From Planctomycetota bacterium (GTDB taxonomy: Bacteria > Planctomycetota > DG-23 > DATKVD01), in contig DATKVD010000409.1 of assembly GCA_035530235.1 (NCBI GenBank), forward strand, positions 1 through 38,931: a stretch of DNA of 38,931 nucleotides, written 5' to 3'. Each line of letters starts with the position of its first letter. The stretch's first letter is position 1. The notes beneath the pieces are model-generated. The model saw nothing but the letters and a program-made list of their open reading frames with translations. It did not search any database and was not told the origin of the DNA. The position numbers and the translations under genes were made by a program. This document shows positions 1,456 through 27,021 of the stretch, piece after piece.

Positions 1456-2667
1456 ATGGCCGGGATTCATCCGACGTATGAGGAGGTGTGTGCCCACCTG
1501 GAGGGGGCGTGCGCACGGTCGCCGGTCGTCCGGCGGGAGGTGGTCGGCAAATCGTTCGAGGGACGTGACCTGTGGCTCGCGACCGTGACGGATTTCGACG
1601 TTCCCGACGACGAGAAGCAGACGGTCGTCCTCACGTGCGGCGTGCACGGCAGCGAGGAGTCGGGGCGCGCGCTCGGGCTGGCGGTCATCGACTGGGCCGG
1701 GACGCGGGACGCGGCCGAGACGCTCCGGAAGCAGAGGCTCCTCGTCTTCAGCTGTGTGAATCCGGACGGCGCCGAGCGCGACAGCTATCACAACGCACAG
1801 GACATCAACATCTGCCGGGCGTATGCACGTGACGGCACGTGCGCCACCCCCGAGGCCCAGGCCGTCTGGGACGTCCTGGTGCGCGAAGTCCCCGACGCCT
1901 TCGTCGATTGTCACGGACTCGCCGGCGGCGGGATGCATGAACTCGTGCTCCCCATGCTCGGACGGCTCTGCGGACCCGAAAACGTCATCAATCAGGTCAT
2001 CGCCTACGACATGACCCGGGCCGCCGAGGCCGCCGGGTTCCCACAGCAGACCCCACACCTCGTCGAGTGCTGGACGGGCGACCAGGACTTCATCGAAAAA
2101 ATCCTCTTCCACCGATTCGGCACCATCGGCTTCACGCTCGAGATGAACGAGGGATACCTGACGACGGAAGAGACGCAGCGGTCGGGGCTCGCCCGGCTGA
2201 AGGCGCTCTTCGGCTGGGGGAACCGCAGGAGCTTCGGCCTGCCGTGGGAGGGCTACCCCAACGGGTGGCTGGGCGGCGGACCGATGTGCGGCGTCCTGCC
2301 CCACGGCCGGAACCCGGGCGAACGCCGACGCAGCCGGGCGGCGATCATGCCCTTCATGCCGCAGGTCCCACAGTTCAGCCGCAAGCCCGACAGGGACGGT
2401 CACTGCGTCACGACGCTCGAGATCACCGAGGGCGACGCGCCCGTGCCCCCGGCGATGACACTCGGCGTCCGCGTCTACCCGTGGTGCACCATCGAAAGCG
2501 CGGCGTTCGACGGCGAGCCGCTCGACCGCGACGCCTTCCCCACCGGCTACACGGTCCACGACGACGACGACTGCTCACACCTCTGTGTCGTGGATATCGG
2601 CGCGCGGCTCGCGACGGGAAAGCACGAGCTGCACATCCGCTATTCGGACCGGCGGGCCGGGACCTGA
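1456..2667 (+). CDS. M14-family zinc carboxypeptidase-like protein
   Basis: ATG at 1456 lies 12 nt after the previous stop, behind GAGGAAAGG, so it is probably co-transcribed. GVHGSEESG carries the HxxE zinc motif and VDCHGL supplies a downstream His. SFEGRDLWL is typical of M14 N-termini. Confidence 0.65.
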   Translation: MAGIHPTYEEVCAHLEGACARSPVVRREVVGKSFEGRDLWLATVTDFDVPDDEKQTVVLTCGVHGSEESGRALGLAVIDWAGTRDAAETLRKQRLLVFSCVNPDGAERDSYHNAQDINICRAYARDGTCATPEAQAVWDVLVREVPDAFVDCHGLAGGGMHELVLPMLGRLCGPENVINQVIAYDMTRAAEAAGFPQQTPHLVECWTGDQDFIEKILFHRFGTIGFTLEMNEGYLTTEETQRSGLARLKALFGWGNRRSFGLPWEGYPNGWLGGGPMCGVLPHGRNPGERRRSRAAIMPFMPQVPQFSRKPDRDGHCVTTLEITEGDAPVPPAMTLGVRVYPWCTIESAAFDGEPLDRDAFPTGYTVHDDDDCSHLCVVDIGARLATGKHELHIRYSDRRAGT

Positions 2668-17007: not shown

Positions 17008-17583
17008 TCATTCCTTCGCCCCCGCCTTGCGCAGGACGTCCGCAACGTCTTCGTGCGAACAGGAGACGGCCACCTTGAGCGCCGTAGTGCCGTCATTGCT
17101 CCGGGCGTTGATATCGGCGCCCTTGGCGATGAGAAGTTCGGCGACCTCCTTTTGCCCACGGGCGGCCGCCCAGCACAGGGGCGTCCACCCCTCACTGTTC
17201 CTGGCGTTGACGTCGGCGCCTTGGGAAATGAGAAGCTCGGCGACCTCCTCTTGCCCATCCTGAACCGCCCAATTCAGGGGTGTCCAGCCATCCCTCCCCG
17301 CTGCGTTGACGTCGGCGCCCTTGCACAGAAGCAAGTCGACCAGCGCGCGATTACGCCATCGTACGGCGAAGTAGAGCGGTGTGCGCCCGTCCCAGTCCCG
17401 CGCATTGACGGGAGAGGGGAAGGAATGCGCCAGATCCACGACCACCGTCTCGTCCCTTGCGTCCATCGCGATGGACATGGCCTTCTCGAGGATGCGGAGG
17501 CGGACGCAGTACGTCCCCGCGAGCGTGAGGACGAGGAAGAGGACCATCGACATCGGGGGGATGAACTTCTTGAGACGCATCAT
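17008..17583 (-). CDS. membrane-anchored ankyrin-repeat protein (4 repeats)
   Basis: The start ATGATG at 17583 follows GGAGGGGCG. The N-terminal hydrophobic helix is MSMVLFLVLTLAGTYCV. There are four ~33-aa repeats of type DGWTPLNWAVQDGQEEVAELLISQGADVNARN. The rest of track ORF 17008..18153 upstream is low-complexity. Confidence 0.75.
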   Translation of the reverse strand: MMRLKKFIPPMSMVLFLVLTLAGTYCVRLRILEKAMSIAMDARDETVVVDLAHSFPSPVNARDWDGRTPLYFAVRWRNRALVDLLLCKGADVNAAGRDGWTPLNWAVQDGQEEVAELLISQGADVNARNSEGWTPLCWAAARGQKEVAELLIAKGADINARSNDGTTALKVAVSCSHEDVADVLRKAGAKE

Positions 17584-18120
17584 CGCCCCTCCGCCAGGGT
17601 GTCGGTGCGGATTCCACAAGTATTCTACCGGGCGAAGTGGAGAGTTTCCAATGGCTTGCGGCCCCCCCACGGCCGGCCGGTCGCCTGGTCGTGGGGTCGC
17701 AGCGGGGCGGGATTCGATACTGATTCTCCGAGTCCTTGGGACGGGGAGGAATGATCGGATTGGCACCTCGTGGGGCAGTAAGTGTGCAGCGGTTCGCCAT
17801 GGTCTCTCCTCATCAGGAAAAGGACTTGCACCCACCTTCCCCCCCCCTCCCCCCATGGGGCCCACGGAACCGCCCCGCTGGACAGGAAATGTGAGGTTTT
17901 TACGGATTGCGTGTCTAATTGCGCCTAAGTGCGACTCTTGCAGCAAACTTGTGCGAAAATCTGCGTCTGGCGCCGGATTCGGCCGATATTTCACAATGTG
18001 CCGGTGCCAGGGTCGTGCAGTCGTTGGCGGTGGCGGCGGTTTCTCCCAACGTTCCGCGACAAGAAACAAGAGGATTTCGGAATCACGGAGGCCAATTTGG
18101 GGTATTAAGGTGGATGGCCA

Positions 18121-18256
18121 GACAGGATCCCCGAAAGGGCGAGCGCACCGCAAGGTGCGTGCGCAAAGTCACGGATCCCTGCAGGGATAGCCGGACTGCC
18201 GAAGGGACGAGTGGGGTTCGACCCGCACCTTCGGTGGAAGGCGCGGGTTGTTTTGT
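18121..18256 (+). promoter_or_regulatory. structured 5' leader (candidate riboswitch/attenuator) upstream of the giant cadherin-repeat gene
   Basis: A GCAA-capped 7-bp hairpin lies at 18143-18160. A weak GAAA-capped hairpin lies at 18130-18139. The helix CGG-ATCCC-tgca-GGGAT-ag-CCG spans 18072+100 (18172-18193). CCGAA(A)GGG(A)CGAG is a direct repeat (18131 and 18199). The helix 18196-18205:18228-18237 competes with the terminator hairpin at 18221-18248. Confidence 0.35.
18221..18256 (+). terminator. intrinsic-terminator-like hairpin plus U-tract inside the leader
   Basis: ACCCGC-a-CCTT / AAGG-c-GCGGGT forms 10 bp with one A.C mismatch and a 6-nt loop, followed by TGTTTTGT (18249-18256). It lies 60-130 nt upstream of the candidate start codons of the giant gene. 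Confidence 0.4.
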
Positions 18257-18315
18257 AAAGGGTTCAAAATATTGAGACGGTGCGCTGACGGCAGCCGGTC
18301 GCTTCACCGCAAGCG

Positions 18316-21300
18316 GTGGCGCGGACCGGACTTGGTGCGAACAGCCAACTGCCGAACGCTTTGCTCGTGAGAGGAACGCGACCTTTGGTGAAGTTTGAAG
18401 CGCTTGAACCCAGACTGCTTCTCGCTGCGGGGTGGGACGTTGTACTCATCGACGACGCCCTCCCCTCGTGGGACATCCTCTCAGCGTCGGCCGTTGAAGC
18501 CGACAGGATCATCCCCTACGACAGCGCCGCCGAGACGGCTGACGATGTCCTATCACGTGTGATTGAACTTGCCGAAGCCAACGATACCAGAATCGATTCA
18601 CTCTGCATCCTCTCGCACGGAGCGCCGGGCCGGTTCGCCCTGGGAAACGAGTGGGTCTCTCAGAGCACGCTTTCGTCGCTCTCCCCCGTCTGGACGAGAC
18701 TGGGCGAGGTGCTTGCCGACGGCGCGGATCTCCTCATCTTCGGGTGCAACGTGGCGGACGACGCCGGGGGACAGGCCCTCTTGGACAGACTGGGTGATCT
18801 TACCGGCGCGGATGTCTTTGCTTCGAACAACTTGACCGGCGTCGGCGGCGACTGGGTGCTGGAAGTGGCTTCGGCAGGCGACGAAGAGGAACTGGCTGCC
18901 GGGCTGGACCTGCCGCTGAACGCCTCGCTGCTCGATGCCTCCGACGTGAGTCTCGCCAACAGCGCCCCGGTGCTGGATAACACGCAGAGCCCGACGCTGA
19001 CGGCCGAGAACGAAGACGCGGGGACGCCCTTGGGGGCGGTGGGGACGCTGGTTTCCAGCCTGGTGGATTTCGCGGTCCCCAGCGGGCAGGTTGATAACGT
19101 GACCGATCCGGACTCGGGGGCCCTGCTGGGCATCGCGGTCACGTCGGCCGATACGACCAACGGCACGTGGCATTACTCCACCGACAACGGCACCAATTGG
19201 TTCGCGTTGGGGGCGGTGGCCAACAACAACGCGCGACTCCTGGCGGCGGACGCCAACACGCGGATCTACTTCCAGCCCAACGCCGACTACAACGGCACCC
19301 TGGCCAGCGCGATCACTTTCCGGGCCTGGGACCAGACCAGCGGAACGAACGGCGGCACGGCCGACACGATTGGCACCAGTAACAGTTTCCTCGATTGTTT
19401 CAGTTCCGCTTCGTACAGCAACAACGATGGGACACAGAGTTGGAGTACGAACTGGATCGAAAACGACATCGACGGTGGCGGTGCGACCGGCGGAAATATC
19501 GATGTGCCGACGCCATTTCTGCGAGTAATTGCGTCGCACGTTGGCGATCGAATCTACCGTGAAGCAGACCTGACCGGTGCATCGGCGGCCACGTTCTCAT
19601 TCTCACTCGATAACCGGATGGTCGGATCGGACCAGGTTGCCGTTCAGGTCTCCGGAGACGGCGGGAGTGGTTATACAACGCTGATGACGATCACGAGTGC
19701 GACCGCCAACGGAACGCTCAGTTTCGACATCTCCGCGTATATCGCCAGCAATACTCGGGTCCGCTTCTATGTCGTGCAGGGGCCACCGGGGCCAAGTGGG
19801 AACGAGGTACGGTTTGATGACGTTCAAATTGAGACTGTGACGGGCCACGGCGGCACCACGGCCTTCTCGTCCGCTACCGACACGGCCAGCCTGGTGATCA
19901 ACGCAATCAACGACGCCCCGATGATTAACGACCAGTCGCTCCCGAACGTCGACGAGAACGGTGCCAACGGGACCTCGGTCGGCACCGTGGTCGCCAGCGA
20001 TCCCGATGCCGGTGATTCGCTCACCTATTCAATCACGGCAGGCAACACGGGAGGGGCGTTTGCGATCGACCCGAACACCGGCGAGATCACGGTCAATAAT
20101 GGTGCGGCTCTCGACTTTGAAACAAACCCGGTCTTCAGTCTGACCGTGCAGGTCGAGGACACCGGAGCGCTCACCGATGATGCGACCGTGACCATCAACC
20201 TGAACGACCTCAACGAATCGCCCAGCATCAACGATCAAAGCCTGCCGAACATCGATGAAAACTCGGCGAACGGGACCTCGGTCGGCACCGTGGTCGCCAG
20301 TGACGTCGATGCCGGCGATTCGCTGACCTATACGATTACTGCCGGGAACACCGGTAATGCTTTCGCCATCGACCCGAACACGGGGGAGATTACCGTCAAC
20401 AACAGTGCGACCCTCGACTTCGAGACAAGGCCGGTCTTCAACCTGACGGTGCGGGTCGAGGACACCGGCGCTCTGACGGATGATGCCACGGTGACGATCA
20501 ACCTGAATGAAGTGAATGAGACCCCGACGATCAACGATCAAAGCCTCCCGAACATTGATGAAAACTCGCCTGACGGGACGAGTGTGGGGACTGGGGTTGC
20601 GAGTGACCCTGATGCCGGCGACAGCCTGACCTACAAGATCACTAGCGGAAACACGGGAAACGCCTTTGCCATTGACCCGGACACCGGTGAGGTCACGGTC
20701 AATAACAGCGGGGCTCTCGACTTCGGGACCGACCCGGTCTTCAACCTGACGGTGCAGGTGAAGGACACCGGTGCCCTGACGGATGATGCGATCGTGACGA
20801 TCGCCCTGAATGACCTCAACGAGTCGCCCATCATCGATGACCAGTCACTGCCGAATGTCGATGAGAACGCTGCGAGCGGCACCTTAGTCGGGACGGTCGT
20901 TGCCAGTGATCCCGATGCGGGGGACAGCTTGACCTACAGCATCACGGGTGGCAATACGGGTAACGGGTTTTCGATCAGTGCCTCCAGTGGTCAGATCAGG
21001 GTGAATAGCAGTGCCGCCCGGGACTTTGAGACGAATCCGGTCTTCTATCTGACCGTCGAGGTCGAGGATACGGGCGGACTGACGGATACCGCGACGGTGA
21101 CGATCAACCTCAATGACCTCAACGAGACCCCGACGATCAACGACCAGTCGCTCCCGAACCTCGACGAGAACAGTGCTAACGGTACCTTGGTCGGCACCGT
21201 GGTCGCCAGTGACGTCGATGCGGGCGATTCGCTGACCTACACGATTACCGGCGGGAACACCGGCAATGCTTTCGCCATCGATCCCAATACCGGCGAGATC

Positions 21301-22803
21301 ACGGTCAATAATTCGGCCGCTCTCGACTTCGAGACCAAGTCGGTCTTCAGCCTGACGGTGCAGGTCGAAGACACGGGTGCCCTGACGGATGATGCGACCG
21401 TGACGATTAATCTGAACGATCTCAACGAGTCGCCCATCATCAATGACCAGTCACTGCCGAATGTCGATGAGAACGGTGCTGATGGAACTCCGGTCGGCAC
21501 CGTCGTCCCCATCGACCCGGATGCGAGCGACTCACTAACGTACACGATCACCGGCGGCAACACCGGCAACGTCTTTGCGATAGACCCCGATACGGGTGAG
21601 ATTACTGTCAACAACTCGGCTGCGCTGGATTTCGAGACGCACCCGGTGTTCAGCCTCACCGTCCGGGTCGAGGACACCGGCGCCCTGACCGACACGGCAA
21701 CCGTGACGATCAATCTCAACGATCTCAACGAGTCCCCGAGTGTTGCCGACCAGGATGTCGTTGTCCTGATAGGCAGTCCCGACGGGACCGCGGTGGGCAC
21801 GATGAGTGCGACCGATCCGGATTCCGGCGACACGCTCACCTACGCAATCACGGGAGGGAACGGCAGCGGAATCTTCGCGATCGACGCGGCGGCCGGGAAA
21901 GTCACGGTGGCAGACGGTGCTGCGCCCGGCGCCGGGGGCGCAATCATCTACGTTCTGACGGTTCAAGTCACGGACGGGGGCGGCATGACCGACACGGCCA
22001 CCCTTACGATCGACCTTGCCCGGCCGTATGAGCCGCCGAGTGTGGATGAGCCCGGATCGTCCGGCGATGAGAACGGGGACGGAGACGACACGGACCGTGA
22101 GGGAAACAAGTCGACGCCCGTTCCAGGTAATCCATCCGACGACGGAGACGGGGATTCGCCCTCGGCACCGGATGAGGGGGCCACCCCTGATTACGGCGGC
22201 GGAAGGGATCCGGCCGGTCCTGCGAAAGATGAAGGGCCGCCGCCCGTTCCCGCAGAGCCGCCTGAGGCGGGAGAGCCCCCTGAGGCGGTGTCAGAACCGC
22301 AACCGGACATTCCAGCGGAGCCCGAGCCGGGGCCCCCTTTGCCCCCGAACGATGTCTCACCGACGCCGACGGCTCCCCAGGTTGTCACTGAGCTGGTGAA
22401 GCCCCTGCCGCCGGTGGCTCCCGTGACGGCGGCTGACGTGGTTTCGGAAACGGCGCCGGTCTGGGAGAGTCTGGACCACCTCGATGAGCACATGGACGAA
22501 CAAGCGGCCCAGCAGGCCCAATGGCAGACGGCCGCGGTCGGCACAACGACGGGCTTGACCTTCGCACTGTCGGTGGGATACATCGTCTGGTCGTACCAGA
22601 GCAGCGGGCTGCTGCTCAGCGTGCTGTCAAGTCTGCGTCTCTGGCGGTGGACCGACCCGCTGCCCATCCTGGAGTACTGGGAGCGGCAGGAACATCAGAG
22701 ACGTCGGAGGAAGAAGGGCTCAGGGGACACCGGCGATTCGGAAGAGAAGCGATTGGCGAGACTGTTTGAGCCGCGTCTCACCAGACACATTGAGACTCAA
22801 TAG
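18316..22803 (+). CDS. giant DUF4347-like / cadherin-repeat surface protein with Pro-rich stalk and C-terminal TM anchor
   Basis: The N-terminus has ..FEALEPRLLLAA, then ILSHGAPGRFALG..LLIFGCNVA..ADVFASNNLTG, which looks like DUF4347. Seven 100-aa cadherin-like repeats follow, then PEPxP-rich low complexity, then the hydrophobic AAVGTTTGLTFALSVGYIVWSY followed by RRRRKK. The codon at 18316 is GTG. TTG 18385 or GTG 18388, 8-11 nt after GAGGAA, are plausible true starts. Confidence 0.85.
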   Translation: MARTGLGANSQLPNALLVRGTRPLVKFEALEPRLLLAAGWDVVLIDDALPSWDILSASAVEADRIIPYDSAAETADDVLSRVIELAEANDTRIDSLCILSHGAPGRFALGNEWVSQSTLSSLSPVWTRLGEVLADGADLLIFGCNVADDAGGQALLDRLGDLTGADVFASNNLTGVGGDWVLEVASAGDEEELAAGLDLPLNASLLDASDVSLANSAPVLDNTQSPTLTAENEDAGTPLGAVGTLVSSLVDFAVPSGQVDNVTDPDSGALLGIAVTSADTTNGTWHYSTDNGTNWFALGAVANNNARLLAADANTRIYFQPNADYNGTLASAITFRAWDQTSGTNGGTADTIGTSNSFLDCFSSASYSNNDGTQSWSTNWIENDIDGGGATGGNIDVPTPFLRVIASHVGDRIYREADLTGASAATFSFSLDNRMVGSDQVAVQVSGDGGSGYTTLMTITSATANGTLSFDISAYIASNTRVRFYVVQGPPGPSGNEVRFDDVQIETVTGHGGTTAFSSATDTASLVINAINDAPMINDQSLPNVDENGANGTSVGTVVASDPDAGDSLTYSITAGNTGGAFAIDPNTGEITVNNGAALDFETNPVFSLTVQVEDTGALTDDATVTINLNDLNESPSINDQSLPNIDENSANGTSVGTVVASDVDAGDSLTYTITAGNTGNAFAIDPNTGEITVNNSATLDFETRPVFNLTVRVEDTGALTDDATVTINLNEVNETPTINDQSLPNIDENSPDGTSVGTGVASDPDAGDSLTYKITSGNTGNAFAIDPDTGEVTVNNSGALDFGTDPVFNLTVQVKDTGALTDDAIVTIALNDLNESPIIDDQSLPNVDENAASGTLVGTVVASDPDAGDSLTYSITGGNTGNGFSISASSGQIRVNSSAARDFETNPVFYLTVEVEDTGGLTDTATVTINLNDLNETPTINDQSLPNLDENSANGTLVGTVVASDVDAGDSLTYTITGGNTGNAFAIDPNTGEITVNNSAALDFETKSVFSLTVQVEDTGALTDDATVTINLNDLNESPIINDQSLPNVDENGADGTPVGTVVPIDPDASDSLTYTITGGNTGNVFAIDPDTGEITVNNSAALDFETHPVFSLTVRVEDTGALTDTATVTINLNDLNESPSVADQDVVVLIGSPDGTAVGTMSATDPDSGDTLTYAITGGNGSGIFAIDAAAGKVTVADGAAPGAGGAIIYVLTVQVTDGGGMTDTATLTIDLARPYEPPSVDEPGSSGDENGDGDDTDREGNKSTPVPGNPSDDGDGDSPSAPDEGATPDYGGGRDPAGPAKDEGPPPVPAEPPEAGEPPEAVSEPQPDIPAEPEPGPPLPPNDVSPTPTAPQVVTELVKPLPPVAPVTAADVVSETAPVWESLDHLDEHMDEQAAQQAQWQTAAVGTTTGLTFALSVGYIVWSYQSSGLLLSVLSSLRLWRWTDPLPILEYWERQEHQRRRRKKGSGDTGDSEEKRLARLFEPRLTRHIETQ
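19909..22008 (+). repeat. seven tandem 300-bp coding repeats (cadherin-like domains)
   Basis: Units start at 19909, 20209, 20509, 20809, 21109, 21409 and 21709. Each encodes N(D/E)xPxINDQSLPNxDEN..GT.VGTVVASD.DAGDSLTY.ITGGNTGNAFAIDPNTGEITVNN..LDFET.PVF.LTV.VEDTGALTDDATVTINLNDL. Units 2 and 5 share long near-identical nucleotide stretches (GGTCGGCACCGTGGTCGCCAGTGACGTCGATGC..). Confidence 0.85.
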
Positions 22804-22815
22804 GGAGGAAGACCC

Positions 22816-25242
22816 ATGTTGGGCAAACGGGCATCGGCGGCAACGCGCATCAGCCTGGGACTGGTGGGGCTGACGGTCACGCTGCTGCTCGTGGCACAGT
22901 TGGTCGGACTTGTACCCGACCGGTCCGAGGCCATTCTCAAAGGCCGAAAGGCGTTGTGCGAGGCCGTTGCGTTTCACTGGGCTATCGCGGCCCAGACATC
23001 GGACCTTTCCTGGATACGGGCCGCGGGGGACAGTGTCGTCAAGCGGAACCCGGACGTCCTCTCGATCGCCCTGCGCTCCGACGACGGAAAACTGCTGGTC
23101 GAGGCAGGCGAGCATGAGGCGTTCTGGGAGGAACTCCCGACCGGTGAGTCCACCGTGAATCAGGCCGTCGTGCCGATCTTCGGGCTTCCGGGCCGCACGC
23201 CCCGGGGCCAGATAGAAGTCCGTTTCGCGTCGCTGGACGGCGGGGGACTGCTTTCGTGGCTGCGGATTCCCATCTTCGGCATGGTGCTCTTTCTCGCCGT
23301 CTGGGGTTTTCTCGTTTTCCGGGTCTACATGGGCAGGACGCTCCAGCACCTCGACCCGTCCAAGGTTGTTCCTGAGCGTGTGAAAGTGGCATTGAACATC
23401 ATGTCGGAGGGCGTGGCGCTCCTGGACGACAGGGAGCGCATCGTTCTGGCGAATGATGTTTTCGCGGCAACCCTCGGTGTTCCCGCGTCCGAGTTGCAGG
23501 GACAGCGTATCGGCGGACTGTCGTGGCGACAGCAGGACTCCGGCAAGCCGCCTGAAGAGTATCCTTGGACGGAGGCCCTGCGTGAAGGAAAGACTCTGCG
23601 CGGCGTCGCGCTGGTGCTGCCGGACGGCCCGAAGGGTGTCCGAACATTTGTGGTCAACGTGACCCCCATCCTGGGTGCGGGCAAGACGCCCAAGGGCGCG
23701 CTCGCGACCTTCGACGATGTCAGTGCCGTCGAAGAGAAGAATGCCCGTCTCCGGGAAATGCTGAAACTGCTCAAGGAATCACAGAAGAAGGTCAACTGCC
23801 AGAACCAGCAACTCCAGGAGTTGGCCGCGCACGACCCGCTGACCGGATGTCTGAACCGCCGTGCCTTCTTCGAGAACGCCGAAATCGCGTGGAGTGCCGC
23901 CAAGAGATACGGCTATCCTCTCGGCTGCATCATGGTGGACGTGGACCATTTCAAAGCGGTCAACGACCGTCACGGGCACGCCGTGGGTGACCAGGTCCTT
24001 CGGGAACTGGCCAGGAGGCTTCAGTTGGGCAGCCGGGACAGCGACGTGATCTGCCGTTACGGCGGAGAGGAGTTCTGTATCCTCCTCTTGCACGCCGACA
24101 TCGAACAGACGTTGAAAGCAGCTGAACACTACCGTAAGTCGATCGAGTCCAAGGATCACGCCGGTATCCCTGTGACGGTGAGCTTGGGTTGTTCGGCCAC
24201 GGAATCCGGGGCGACCGACCTGCACGAGCTGCTCAACCAGGCCGACCAGGCCCTCTATGTGGCCAAGAGATCCGGGCGAAAATGCTCGGCCAGATGGGAC
24301 GACGTAGCCCAAGAGGTGAAAATCGAAAAAACGAGCCCCTTGTCCGAAGAACTCCCGGGGGATGCCAAGTTGGCCGTCCCCATTCCCATCCAGGCCGTGA
24401 ATGCACTGATGGCCGCTCTAGCCCATCGGGACATCACAACGGCGGAACACAGTCGGGAGGTCGCCGAGCTCTGCGTGACAACGGCCGAGGGTCTCATGTC
24501 CCCCAGCGAGTGCTTCGTGCTTGAGGTCGCCGCACTTCTCCACGACATCGGCAAGCTCAGTGTGCCGGATTGGGTCCTGCTCAAGCCCGGGCCGCTTACG
24601 GAGGAAGAGTGGCGGGTAATGCACCACTACAACGAAATGGGCGTCGGAATCATCGCCTCGGCCTTCGCCAGCGCCCAGCTGACCGAAATCGCGCGATACC
24701 ATCGTGCGTGGTACGGCGGACGTCCCGACAAGCCGGCCATGCCGACGGGGAAGGACATTCCGCTCCGGGCCAGGATCCTCGCCATCGGCGATGCCTTCAG
24801 CGCCATGACCGGCAATCGTCCCTATCGCAAAGCCATGCGTCAGGAGGAAGCGTTCGAAGAACTCCGCCGCTGCTCAGACACGCAGTTCGACCGCGAACTG
24901 GTGGAGTTATTCATCGAAAAAGTGCCGGCCCGTGACCAGAGCAGGAGAACCAGTGAGACGGCTTTCTCCGAAGGGACGTTGCTGGAAATCGGCAGGCAGA
25001 CCGAAGGACTTGTCTCGGCTCTGGAGGCTCAGGACATAAGCACGCTGGCGGTCCTCGCCGGGCGACTGGCGGCGGTCGCAACCAAACAGGGAATGCCCAC
25101 GATCGCGCAACGTGCAGCCCAGCTCCAGGAAGCCGCTCGGGGCGATGGTGATCCGGAGACCATTCTCCAACTCACAACCGATCTTCTGAATCTCTCGCGC
25201 CTGGAGCGGGAGAATCACCTCGCCGCCAAACGCAGCTCCTGA
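22816..25242 (+). CDS. membrane sensor PAS-GGDEF (diguanylate cyclase) fused to an HD-GYP-like domain and a helical C-terminal tail
   Basis: ATG 22816 lies 13 nt after the stop of the giant gene, behind GGGAGGAAG. There are two N-terminal TM segments and a PAS-like NIMSEGVALLDDRERIVLAND. RDSDVICRYGGEEFCILL carries an RxxD I-site plus GGEEF (24061-24075). ALLHDIGK supplies the HD (24541-24546). DIPLRARILAIGDAFSAMTGNRPYRKAM is the HD-GYP family C-motif. Confidence 0.85.
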   Translation: MLGKRASAATRISLGLVGLTVTLLLVAQLVGLVPDRSEAILKGRKALCEAVAFHWAIAAQTSDLSWIRAAGDSVVKRNPDVLSIALRSDDGKLLVEAGEHEAFWEELPTGESTVNQAVVPIFGLPGRTPRGQIEVRFASLDGGGLLSWLRIPIFGMVLFLAVWGFLVFRVYMGRTLQHLDPSKVVPERVKVALNIMSEGVALLDDRERIVLANDVFAATLGVPASELQGQRIGGLSWRQQDSGKPPEEYPWTEALREGKTLRGVALVLPDGPKGVRTFVVNVTPILGAGKTPKGALATFDDVSAVEEKNARLREMLKLLKESQKKVNCQNQQLQELAAHDPLTGCLNRRAFFENAEIAWSAAKRYGYPLGCIMVDVDHFKAVNDRHGHAVGDQVLRELARRLQLGSRDSDVICRYGGEEFCILLLHADIEQTLKAAEHYRKSIESKDHAGIPVTVSLGCSATESGATDLHELLNQADQALYVAKRSGRKCSARWDDVAQEVKIEKTSPLSEELPGDAKLAVPIPIQAVNALMAALAHRDITTAEHSREVAELCVTTAEGLMSPSECFVLEVAALLHDIGKLSVPDWVLLKPGPLTEEEWRVMHHYNEMGVGIIASAFASAQLTEIARYHRAWYGGRPDKPAMPTGKDIPLRARILAIGDAFSAMTGNRPYRKAMRQEEAFEELRRCSDTQFDRELVELFIEKVPARDQSRRTSETAFSEGTLLEIGRQTEGLVSALEAQDISTLAVLAGRLAAVATKQGMPTIAQRAAQLQEAARGDGDPETILQLTTDLLNLSRLERENHLAAKRSS

Positions 25243-25662
25243 CGCGATCGATGCGGTGCTGATGACGGGTTACGGTGCTTCCGCCGCAGACGGTTGGCGG
25301 CTTGCATGCAACCCGCTGCCGTGATATGAGACAGGCCCTCGTTTCTCAACCCCTGTTCCCACCGAGGGCCTGAAGATGCCATCCATGGCAGTCTCCCGCA
25401 TCCCTCCCCGAGCTGGACTCGGACCAGGAATCCGCCGAGGCGGATTGACAGCCTTTCGCGATCTGCGGGAGCGGGATTGCCTCATGCTGGCGCGATTCAT
25501 CACCGGAGACAGGCCGCGTCTGTGCGTTTGATCCGAGGGCGCATGTGAACTGCCGGGAGGGAGGTCACTTCTTGTCGGTCTTGGCGGGTTCTTCGGGTTT
25601 CTTCTCGAGCTTCTTCAACGGTTCGGCGGCCCGTCGGCCCCTGGTTATTCACTTGTCCTTAT

Positions 25663-27021
25663 TCATCCCCCTTTGTGTTGGCCGTGGCTGACGGGGGCGC
25701 CGATGAGGGGCCAGGCGTACTTGCCCAGGGCCAAGGACACCAAGTCCGCGTGCGAGGTGACCAGCCGGAAGGTCAGGAGTGCCGTCGCCGCCGCCAGGCC
25801 GAAGAGGATGCCGCCCAGGTGGGCCCAGTGGGCCGTGCCGGTCTCGGCACCCACCAGGGTGAAGATCACGTCGAAGGCGACGTAGAACAGCACCAGGAGC
25901 ACGCCGCGGACGGCAAAGATCTTTATCGAAAGACGGAACCTGGCAATAAGCCCCCATCGCATCCATATCGCCATGTACACCCGCTGTAGCGGGAACAGCA
26001 CGAGGTACATGCCGGCCAGACCCATGATGGCCCCGGAGGCCCCCAGCATGGGTGTCGGCACGCCGGCCGCCTCGGCCGTCATGTGGGCCCACGCCGCCAG
26101 CACCGCCAGCAGCGGGTAGAGCAGCGCCGTCCACACGTTGCCCACCAGGGCGTTCACCCGGGTGCCGAGGACCAGCAGAAAGACGAGGTTGCCCGCCAGG
26201 TGCATGATGTCGGCATGGAGGAATGCCGAGGTGACCATCTGGTAGAGGTGGAACTCGCCCAGCGACCGCTGTTCGGGTGTCAGGGCCTGGTAGGTTTCGC
26301 GAATCAACCGGTCCTCCGGGACCGTCCCTTCCAGTTCCTCGGCCTTCCGGACGAAGGCGTCTGAGTCACCGTAGCTGGTATACTCGTAGAACGCGATGAT
26401 CTGCTCGTCGGAAGCGGGCGCCTTGCCCGCCCAGAGCATCAGGTTCTTGAGGCTCTGCATCTGGGGCGCACCGCGCCATTCGTAGGACCAGAACACCACG
26501 CTGGCCAGCACCGTTGCCGCCGCAATGACCCAGACGGCCCACGGCTTCTTCCGCCCCGGGGCCTCGGAGTAGACCGGATAAAGTCCGAACGGGATGAGCC
26601 AGCTGATGGGACGGAGGACCTGTTCGACGCGGCCCTCCAGCTCATTGCGATCGACGTCGCGGGCCGTCAGGACGGGCCGGCCGCTCGGAAGATAGATGCC
26701 GCAGTCCACACACACCTTGGCGTCCATGGGCAGCGGGCGGGCGCAGCTCGGACAGAACGTGCCGGCGGCCGTCGGATGCAGCGGGTCCGTGCGAAGGGGT
26801 TCCGGCCGGGCAGGTGCCGCCGCCGCGCGGCGCGGGGGCCTGTCATCGGCGGCGCCCAAGGCCGCATCATTTGCATGGGGGCCGGACGGCTCGGGTGCGG
26901 GTTCGGCGGACTCGGGCACACGCAGGATCGAACTGCACCTGGGGCAGCGTCCCTTTCGGCCGCCCTTGTCGTCGGCGACCCGCAGGACGCTCCCGCACTG
27001 CGGACACTGGAAGCTGATCAT
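25663..27021 (-). CDS. rhomboid-family intramembrane serine protease with N-terminal zinc-ribbon domains
   Basis: FLHADIMHLAGNLVFLLVLG is the HxxxN motif and GASGAIMGLAG is the GxSG catalytic Ser motif. HWAHLGGILFG carries the catalytic His. The N-terminus has CPQCGS..CPRCSS and CPSCAR..CVDCG zinc ribbons. Confidence 0.8.
   Translation of the reverse strand: MISFQCPQCGSVLRVADDKGGRKGRCPRCSSILRVPESAEPAPEPSGPHANDAALGAADDRPPRRAAAAPARPEPLRTDPLHPTAAGTFCPSCARPLPMDAKVCVDCGIYLPSGRPVLTARDVDRNELEGRVEQVLRPISWLIPFGLYPVYSEAPGRKKPWAVWVIAAATVLASVVFWSYEWRGAPQMQSLKNLMLWAGKAPASDEQIIAFYEYTSYGDSDAFVRKAEELEGTVPEDRLIRETYQALTPEQRSLGEFHLYQMVTSAFLHADIMHLAGNLVFLLVLGTRVNALVGNVWTALLYPLLAVLAAWAHMTAEAAGVPTPMLGASGAIMGLAGMYLVLFPLQRVYMAIWMRWGLIARFRLSIKIFAVRGVLLVLFYVAFDVIFTLVGAETGTAHWAHLGGILFGLAAATALLTFRLVTSHADLVSLALGKYAWPLIGAPVSHGQHKGG

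Follow-up and report, generated by a model that had tools for sequence, protein, structure and literature searches.

The prototype of the class I c-di-GMP riboswitch family (RF01051) is Vc2 of Vibrio cholerae; the roles of its bases G20, A47 and C92 as ligand contacts and of its C44-G83 interhelical pair, described as universally conserved, are taken here from PMC4744006. For Cd1 of Clostridioides difficile, PMC9262584 describes a ligand-bound form, [PA][TH], that terminates transcription and a ligand-free form that is a transient P[AT]H antiterminator. Bc2 of Bacillus thuringiensis, located before the collagen adhesion protein gene cap, is an ON switch (PMC4933901); it is the best-studied adhesin case. 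Among the titles listed on c-di-GMP riboswitches in Planctomycetes we found no paper on the subject, and the listed literature on DUF4347 included none on riboswitches.

Here we analyzed a 38,931-nucleotide stretch of a Planctomycetota genome (“the window”). The preliminary description of this DNA had proposed a leader of riboswitch type, in which terminator and antiterminator helices exclude each other, placed ahead of an operon for an adhesin and a c-di-GMP enzyme, and it had the architecture right. We consider it probable that the leader is a canonical c-di-GMP-I riboswitch with a four-strand (P-A-T-H) attenuator and OFF logic, acting on an mRNA for an adhesin and a PAS-GGDEF-HD protein.

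Identity and fold of the aptamer

An Rfam 15 scan of the whole window, a check proposed in the preliminary description, returned a single match above its gathering score. This was RF01051 (c-di-GMP-I) at 18128-18203 on the (+) strand; its score of 56.8 bits exceeds the cut-off of 35, the E-value for the search of the whole window is 1.2e-8, and the match spans the full model (positions 1-87). The same aptamer reached E = 3.5e-10 against RF01051 in a genome-wide search and scores 77.1 bits with R1, our own clade model. Based on the RF01051 and R1 matches, invariant contact bases and covariation, the c-di-GMP-I (GEMM-I) aptamer occupies 18128-18207 (+) and is 76-80 nt long.

Model alignments and the sequence define three helices on the (+) strand. 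P1 pairs 18128-18133 with 18200-18207, which leaves an AA bulge at 18202-18203. P2 is formed by 18139-18140 with 18163-18164 and by 18144-18149 with 18154-18159 and carries a GCAA loop, and P3 pairs 18167-18179 with 18184-18197, with A18171 bulged. Structures seen earlier from the letters alone find their place in this fold: the GCAA-capped hairpin at 18143-18160 is P2, and the bulged helix at 18172-18193 is the inner part of P3. A GAAA-capped mini-hairpin (CCC-GAAA-GGG) can indeed be drawn, but in the consensus fold its bases belong to the 5′ strand of P1 and to J1/2. The reported direct repeat CCGAA(A)GGG(A)CGAG was located at 18131-18143 and 18199-18211.

The equivalents of Vc2 G20, A47 and C92 are G18138, A18165 and C18199, and C18162 and G18190 occupy the positions of the C44-G83 pair between P2 and P3; both of the latter columns are invariant in an alignment of 33 aptamers. 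The stretch GCGCAAAGUCACGG, said previously to recall class I “faintly,” is the class I core, so that the resemblance was real, but the rest of the consensus, which had seemed not to fit, does fit. Judged by its sequence, the leader belongs to a known RNA class: it contains a class I c-di-GMP aptamer of canonical type, with its own terminator. The suggestion that ligand and class were open, and that this might be a new kind of leader, is refuted by the RF01051 match at 56.8 bits and the canonical ligand-contact bases. The aptamer is predicted to bind c-di-GMP. Folding of 18121-18262 yielded -66.6 kcal/mol (z = -3.78); 200 dinucleotide shuffles averaged -52.7 +/- 3.7 kcal/mol, and not one of them was as stable.

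P2 in the window is capped by a GCAA tetraloop, and P3 is without a CCUAA-type receptor. Across the clade, CCTAA accompanies 8 of 17 GAAA loops and 1 of 22 other GNRA loops, as counted with a crude loop finder that left six loops unresolved. Given these counts, the window aptamer fits a receptor-less subtype. A rival reading is that the leader is a specificity variant that senses another ligand, either of the c-di-GMP-I-GGC type (RF03167) or of the cGAMP-sensing GEMM-Ib type. In a permissive scan of 17550-18450, RF03167 was the best-scoring model of the clan, with 57.4 bits compared to 56.8 for RF01051, though this falls under its own cut-off of 59, and the short P3 that lacks a tetraloop receptor is a plausible cause of the higher score. 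The window has A18165 where the RF03167 consensus has its diagnostic G (CGC-G-AA). GEMM-Ib aptamers of the cGAMP type have an A at the position equivalent to G20, whereas the window has G18138. With canonical bases in all 33 aligned aptamers of the clade as well, we regard a change of specificity as highly improbable.

A test for covariation in leaders of orthologous DUF4347 genes had also been proposed. Searches of relatives, genome contigs and metagenome contigs found no orthologous leader, so covariation was examined in paralogs and clade relatives, that is, in related c-di-GMP-I units, where the helices do covary. In the genome of the window (5.05 Mb, 658 contigs), six RF01051 matches exceed the cut-off, and 21 of 41 genomes (this one and 40 relatives) have at least one, for 45 matches in total. 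Thus, c-di-GMP-I riboswitches are common in a little-studied phylum. The alignment comprises 33 of the 45 aptamers; ten were omitted for long P3 insertions (L006, L016, L022, L026, L030, L033, L034, L036, L043 and L045) and two for aberrant 3′ ends (L042 and L044). Two of the former, L026 (G019:C77, 20691-20829) and L034 (G019:C135, 10140-10290), are extended by a long additional insertion that separates P2 from the GCAAAG core, score 45-47 bits with RF01051 and look like an expanded aptamer variant.

The five key bases (three ligand contacts and the interhelical pair) are invariant in all 33 aligned aptamers. For P2 and P3, standard pairs occupy 89.6% of cells, and two-sided changes occur in 104 cells versus 35 +/- 4.7 in column shuffles, with none of 500 shuffles reaching the observed value; 13 of the 18 pairs show changes on both sides. 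When partners were slid by one to three columns as a control, pairing fell to 22-47%. P1 was tested separately because its MAFFT alignment was inconsistent. Across the 45 units, the mean pairing energy is -8.0 kcal/mol when both flanks come from one unit and -5.45 kcal/mol when they come from different units (Wilcoxon p = 5e-8, which is overstated since the units are kin), and in several units (e.g., L015, L019, L029 and L035) P1 sequences are quite different and still pair. The related genomes are kin, and statistics across them are overstated. Covariation nonetheless supports P1, P2 and P3.

Expression platform and direction of the switch

Downstream of the aptamer is an intrinsic terminator at 18219-18256 (+), supported by minimum free energy (MFE) folds, by our own terminator finder (-25.1 kcal/mol) and by two compensatory changes that set the stem of the window and of its paralog on contig C199 apart from that of the related leader at G002:C209. 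The terminator hairpin had been noted as 10 bp at 18221-18248. It is present but larger, spanning 18219-18250 with 8 bp, an A.C mismatch, 5 bp (13 bp in total) and a GGUG loop at 18233-18236. UUGUUUUGU follows the hairpin, and the U-rich tail, TTGTTTTGT at 18248-18256, is interrupted by two G residues. A simple pattern scan for terminators had no entry at 17500-18500, probably because of the mismatch within the stem, and none at 25100-25750.

The 10-bp alternative helix of the preliminary description, 18196-18205 (the A strand) with 18228-18237 (the T strand), is also present on the (+) strand, with eight Watson-Crick and two G.U pairs. Its A strand comprises the end of P3, C92 and the 3′ strand of P1, and its T strand comprises the inner 5′ arm and the loop of the terminator, which begins approximately 11 nt after P1. 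The duplex has an energy of -17.8 kcal/mol compared to -10.2 for shuffled partners, only one of 200 being as good (z = -2.73). We folded growing transcripts from the presumed start at 18115. In transcripts ending at 18232-18244 the antiterminator is part of the MFE structure, which is 3.9-8.0 kcal/mol better than an enforced aptamer fold. From 18247 onward, the MFE structure is aptamer plus terminator.

A comparable platform occurs in other units. All aptamers of the six units of this genome end in CUGCCGAA followed by GGGA, and then comes a hairpin with a U tract. Our finder detected terminators in 29 of the 45 units (28 by stricter criteria). Complementarity between the aptamer 3′ end and the 5′ half of the terminator is significant (z < -2) in 16 of these 28, including five of the six units in this genome; in the other 12, among them the genome’s own unit on C654, it is not.

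These elements suggest a four-strand attenuator in which P is 18128-18133, A is 18196-18207, T is 18219-18237 and H is 18238-18250, followed by the U-rich tract. Without ligand, A would pair with T once T is transcribed, leaving H unpaired and allowing read-through into the operon. With c-di-GMP bound, P1 would hold A, T would pair with H and transcription would stop near 18256. High c-di-GMP would in this way turn off both the adhesin gene and the diguanylate cyclase/HD gene. Because the layout is like that of Cd1, c-di-GMP most likely causes termination in the window leader, a direction drawn from the folding model and from this analogy. As in Cd1-type platforms, aptamer and terminator are separate elements, and the 5′ strand of the terminator is complementary to the 3′ strand of P1. 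For the full-length leader, the terminator state has the lowest energy (MFE) even when no ligand is present, so that read-through would depend on a kinetic trap.

The default termination of the full-length leader in thermodynamic folds is also what an ON switch should show at rest. In such a switch the same aptamer would work with reversed logic: c-di-GMP would favor read-through, and the adhesin would be made at high c-di-GMP. The usual rule is that c-di-GMP promotes adhesion. OFF control of an adhesin is contrary to this rule, and ON logic is biologically more intuitive. It also has an experimental counterpart in Bc2, shown to be ON before the adhesin gene cap (PMC4933901). The structure of the window leader argues against it. 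The terminator hairpin lies wholly outside the aptamer, and the sole aptamer strand complementary to it is the 3′ strand of P1, which is sequestered in the ligand-bound fold. No helix was found that is both stabilised by the bound aptamer and in competition with the terminator; compared with the terminator, a hairpin at 18211-18228 is very weak, and the paralog on contig C199 does not conserve it. We thus consider ON logic unlikely and favor c-di-GMP-induced termination.

Putative promoter, intergenic layout and probable origin of the cassette

The roughly 800 nt of non-coding DNA reported before the giant gene resolve into an ankyrin promoter region, about 450 nt without features, the leader promoter, the 130-nt riboswitch and a 128-nt spacer. 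The ankyrin-repeat gene (17008-17583; identified with Pfam) is divergent, and a sigma-70-like promoter (TTGGAA-18-TAGAAT, 17651-17622 on the (-) strand) lies about 40 nt before it. A long C-rich run at 17840-17856 is set in the otherwise featureless intergenic DNA.

The leader promoter is represented by a promoter-like block, GCCAATTTGGGGTATTAA, at 18091-18108 (+). This block is conserved in a four-way alignment of the window with the units at C199 (G000, the genome of the window), G002:C209 and G001:C106, being nearly letter-identical in the other three, and GCC(A/G)ATTT.GGGTAT is invariant. Units of the more distant genomes G007 and G008 have TTGACA-17-TATAAT-type promoters that end about 20-25 nt before the aptamer. 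From the shared block and this placement, TATTAA at 18103-18108 is likely the -10 hexamer, and transcription would start near 18115.

Similarity among these units extends beyond the promoter: in addition to the promoter-like block, the relatives have the aptamer, CUGCCGAAGG as A strand and a terminator bearing CCUUCGG in common with the window. The window copy is closest to C199, which heads two pilin-like genes. Both the C199 and the G002:C209 cassettes precede pilin-like (N_methyl) genes, Pfam gave no match for the first ORF after G001:C106, and the window copy alone stands before an operon with a DUF4347 adhesin. It seems that only in this lineage was the complete promoter-aptamer-terminator cassette copied to a position ahead of the adhesin operon. 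A blastn search of the window leader against plasmids gave no match.

Pfam was run on 52 of 61 candidate downstream ORFs, covering 42 units; the nine left out were six short ORFs (72-101 aa), that of the window and two of L014 (one the L028 copy, the other an ORF of 89 aa). Downstream of the 42 units were 13 pilin-like genes (with an N-terminal methylation motif), two T2SSE/PilT-type ATPases, one PilM and three sigma-70-family genes. One of the same-phylum genomes has a DUF1559 pilin-like protein, and the DUF1559 family is typical of Planctomycetota. At L008, L010 and L016 (G021, G028 and G032, of the same phylum) the gene that follows the riboswitch belongs to the sigma-70 family and has regions 2, 3 and 4, and this arrangement suggests that c-di-GMP may control an alternative sigma factor. 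The genome of the window also has a divergent pair of c-di-GMP-I riboswitches on C466, at 1770-1850 (-) and 2184-2260 (+), separated by ~300-330 nt. The same pair is found in a genome of the same family (G001:C26, 16663-16771 (-) and 17067-17148 (+)), and one riboswitch of the divergent pair heads a pilin-like gene.

DUF4347 loci elsewhere are without this leader. A search with the DUF4347 N-terminus matched one of the 40 relatives (30% identity), one locus in the genome contig collection (40% identity, in an Acidobacteriota MAG) and two loci in metagenome contigs. Of the latter, one matches the window without any difference for 1815 nt, and the other ends at the contig edge, with no upstream DNA. 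R1 found no riboswitch at L047 and L048, and none at 29 further DUF4347 loci in the 20 of 200 other genomes of the phylum that had a DUF4347 match. Among the 201 genomes, a riboswitch thus lies within 1.5 kb of only one of 30 DUF4347 loci, that of the window itself. With this count and the pilin-type relatives of the cassette, the association of riboswitch and DUF4347 adhesin looks like a recent, local acquisition.

A rival reading is that the cassette, as a duplicate from a pilin-like operon, is a decayed or silent copy that regulates nothing. It is clearly a paralog of the C199 unit, it is found at none of the 29 other DUF4347 loci of the phylum sample, and its U tract is weaker than those of its paralogs. 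Against decay, the conserved aptamer positions, P1 pairing, antiterminator and terminator are all intact. Moreover, the P3 difference from C199 is compensatory, A18175-U18188 in the window being G-C in C199, a change also seen with the paralogous contig aligned to the window. DNA of a related strain, a single contig over 18163-18471, differs from the window at 18345, 18361, 18367 and 18426 and is unchanged across 18163-18344, which includes the 3′ half of the aptamer and the terminator. This conservation is compatible with constraint, but one contig is far too little to count as evidence. We find a silent copy very improbable and retain a working OFF switch as the preferred reading.

The spacer between terminator and adhesin gene contains a predicted Y-shaped structure of two hairpins at 18289-18354 (+), closed by GGCAG/CUGCC and present in both the MFE and the centroid fold. 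It is probably unremarkable and not functional. The fold z-score of the spacer region is only -0.64, an Rfam scan of 18252-18400 at E <= 10 gave no match, and the genome has no second copy of the spacer. A predicted pair of the small hairpin over the ribosome-binding site is disrupted by one strain variant. The 3′ end of the element, ACAGCCAACUGCCGAAC, resembles an aptamer 3′ end, and a second aptamer in the spacer was considered. With filters off, R1 gave 0.6 bits on the (+) strand and 5.6 bits (E = 0.14) on the (-) strand at 18281-18378 in a 901-nt search; the (-) match is attributable to chance or to the GGCAG/CUGCC palindrome, and the candidate was rejected.

The element could instead be a diverged second sensor or translational control domain, making the leader a two-stage one. 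As a precedent for this we counted G002:C88, in a genome of the same order, where two intact c-di-GMP-I aptamers (638-718 and 1067-1147; L014/L028) stand in tandem 429 nt apart, but for the window we give the possibility next to no credence. The first of the tandem aptamers has its own terminator, and together they head a gene for a large secreted protein that starts MRGRCC...FEVLEARVLLSG and whose first 472 aa match nothing in Pfam. This gene was rejected as a homolog of the window adhesin (BLASTP E = 1.5).

Controlled genes and comparison with described riboswitches

A Shine-Dalgarno-like sequence, GAGAGGAA, is found at 18369-18376 (+), and the adhesin start codon is likely TTG at 18385 or GTG at 18388; counted from 18385, the DUF4347 match begins at residue 19. 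The adhesin gene (18385-22803 (+), 1472 aa) encodes, according to Pfam, an N-terminal DUF4347, seven cadherin repeats and Big_9 / Cadherin_4 domains. The second gene (22816-25242 (+), 808 aa) begins 12 nt after the adhesin stop and encodes PAS, GGDEF and HD_5 domains; the two genes are presumably co-transcribed. In the 808-aa protein the GGEEF motif is intact, with an RxxD I-site five residues upstream. The HD domain retains the HD dyad and has GVGII in place of the GYP motif of HD-GYP proteins. The protein is apparently an active diguanylate cyclase. As the same transcript would encode this enzyme, the switch may close a feedback loop on its own ligand: an OFF switch with a net cyclase would make a negative loop on c-di-GMP, and an OFF switch with an enzyme that mainly degrades c-di-GMP would make a positive one.

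In its aptamer the window leader resembles Vc2. Both have three helices with a GNRA-capped P2 and share the core GGC...GCGCAAAG...AGCC...CUGCC, the equivalents of G20, A47 and C92 and the interhelical C-G pair. In contrast to the prototype, P3 in the window is short and without a CCUAA-type tetraloop receptor, and the tetraloop is GCAA rather than GAAA. The internal loop of P2 reads GAG/UGC, compared to AAA/GAC in the RF01051 consensus. These differences are within the known variation of the family.

In its platform the window leader resembles Cd1, an OFF switch before a flagellar operon, with which it shares the P-A-T-H layout. The two differ in the distance from aptamer to terminator, which is much smaller in the window (about 11 nt), and in what is regulated, an adhesin and a GGDEF-HD enzyme as opposed to flagellar genes; for the window, the OFF direction is a prediction. 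Like the window leader, Bc2 (PMC4933901) is a class I c-di-GMP riboswitch that has a platform of terminator type and lies in the leader of a gene for a surface adhesin. However, Bc2 is an ON switch, whereas the layout of the window leader predicts that c-di-GMP turns the adhesin operon off.
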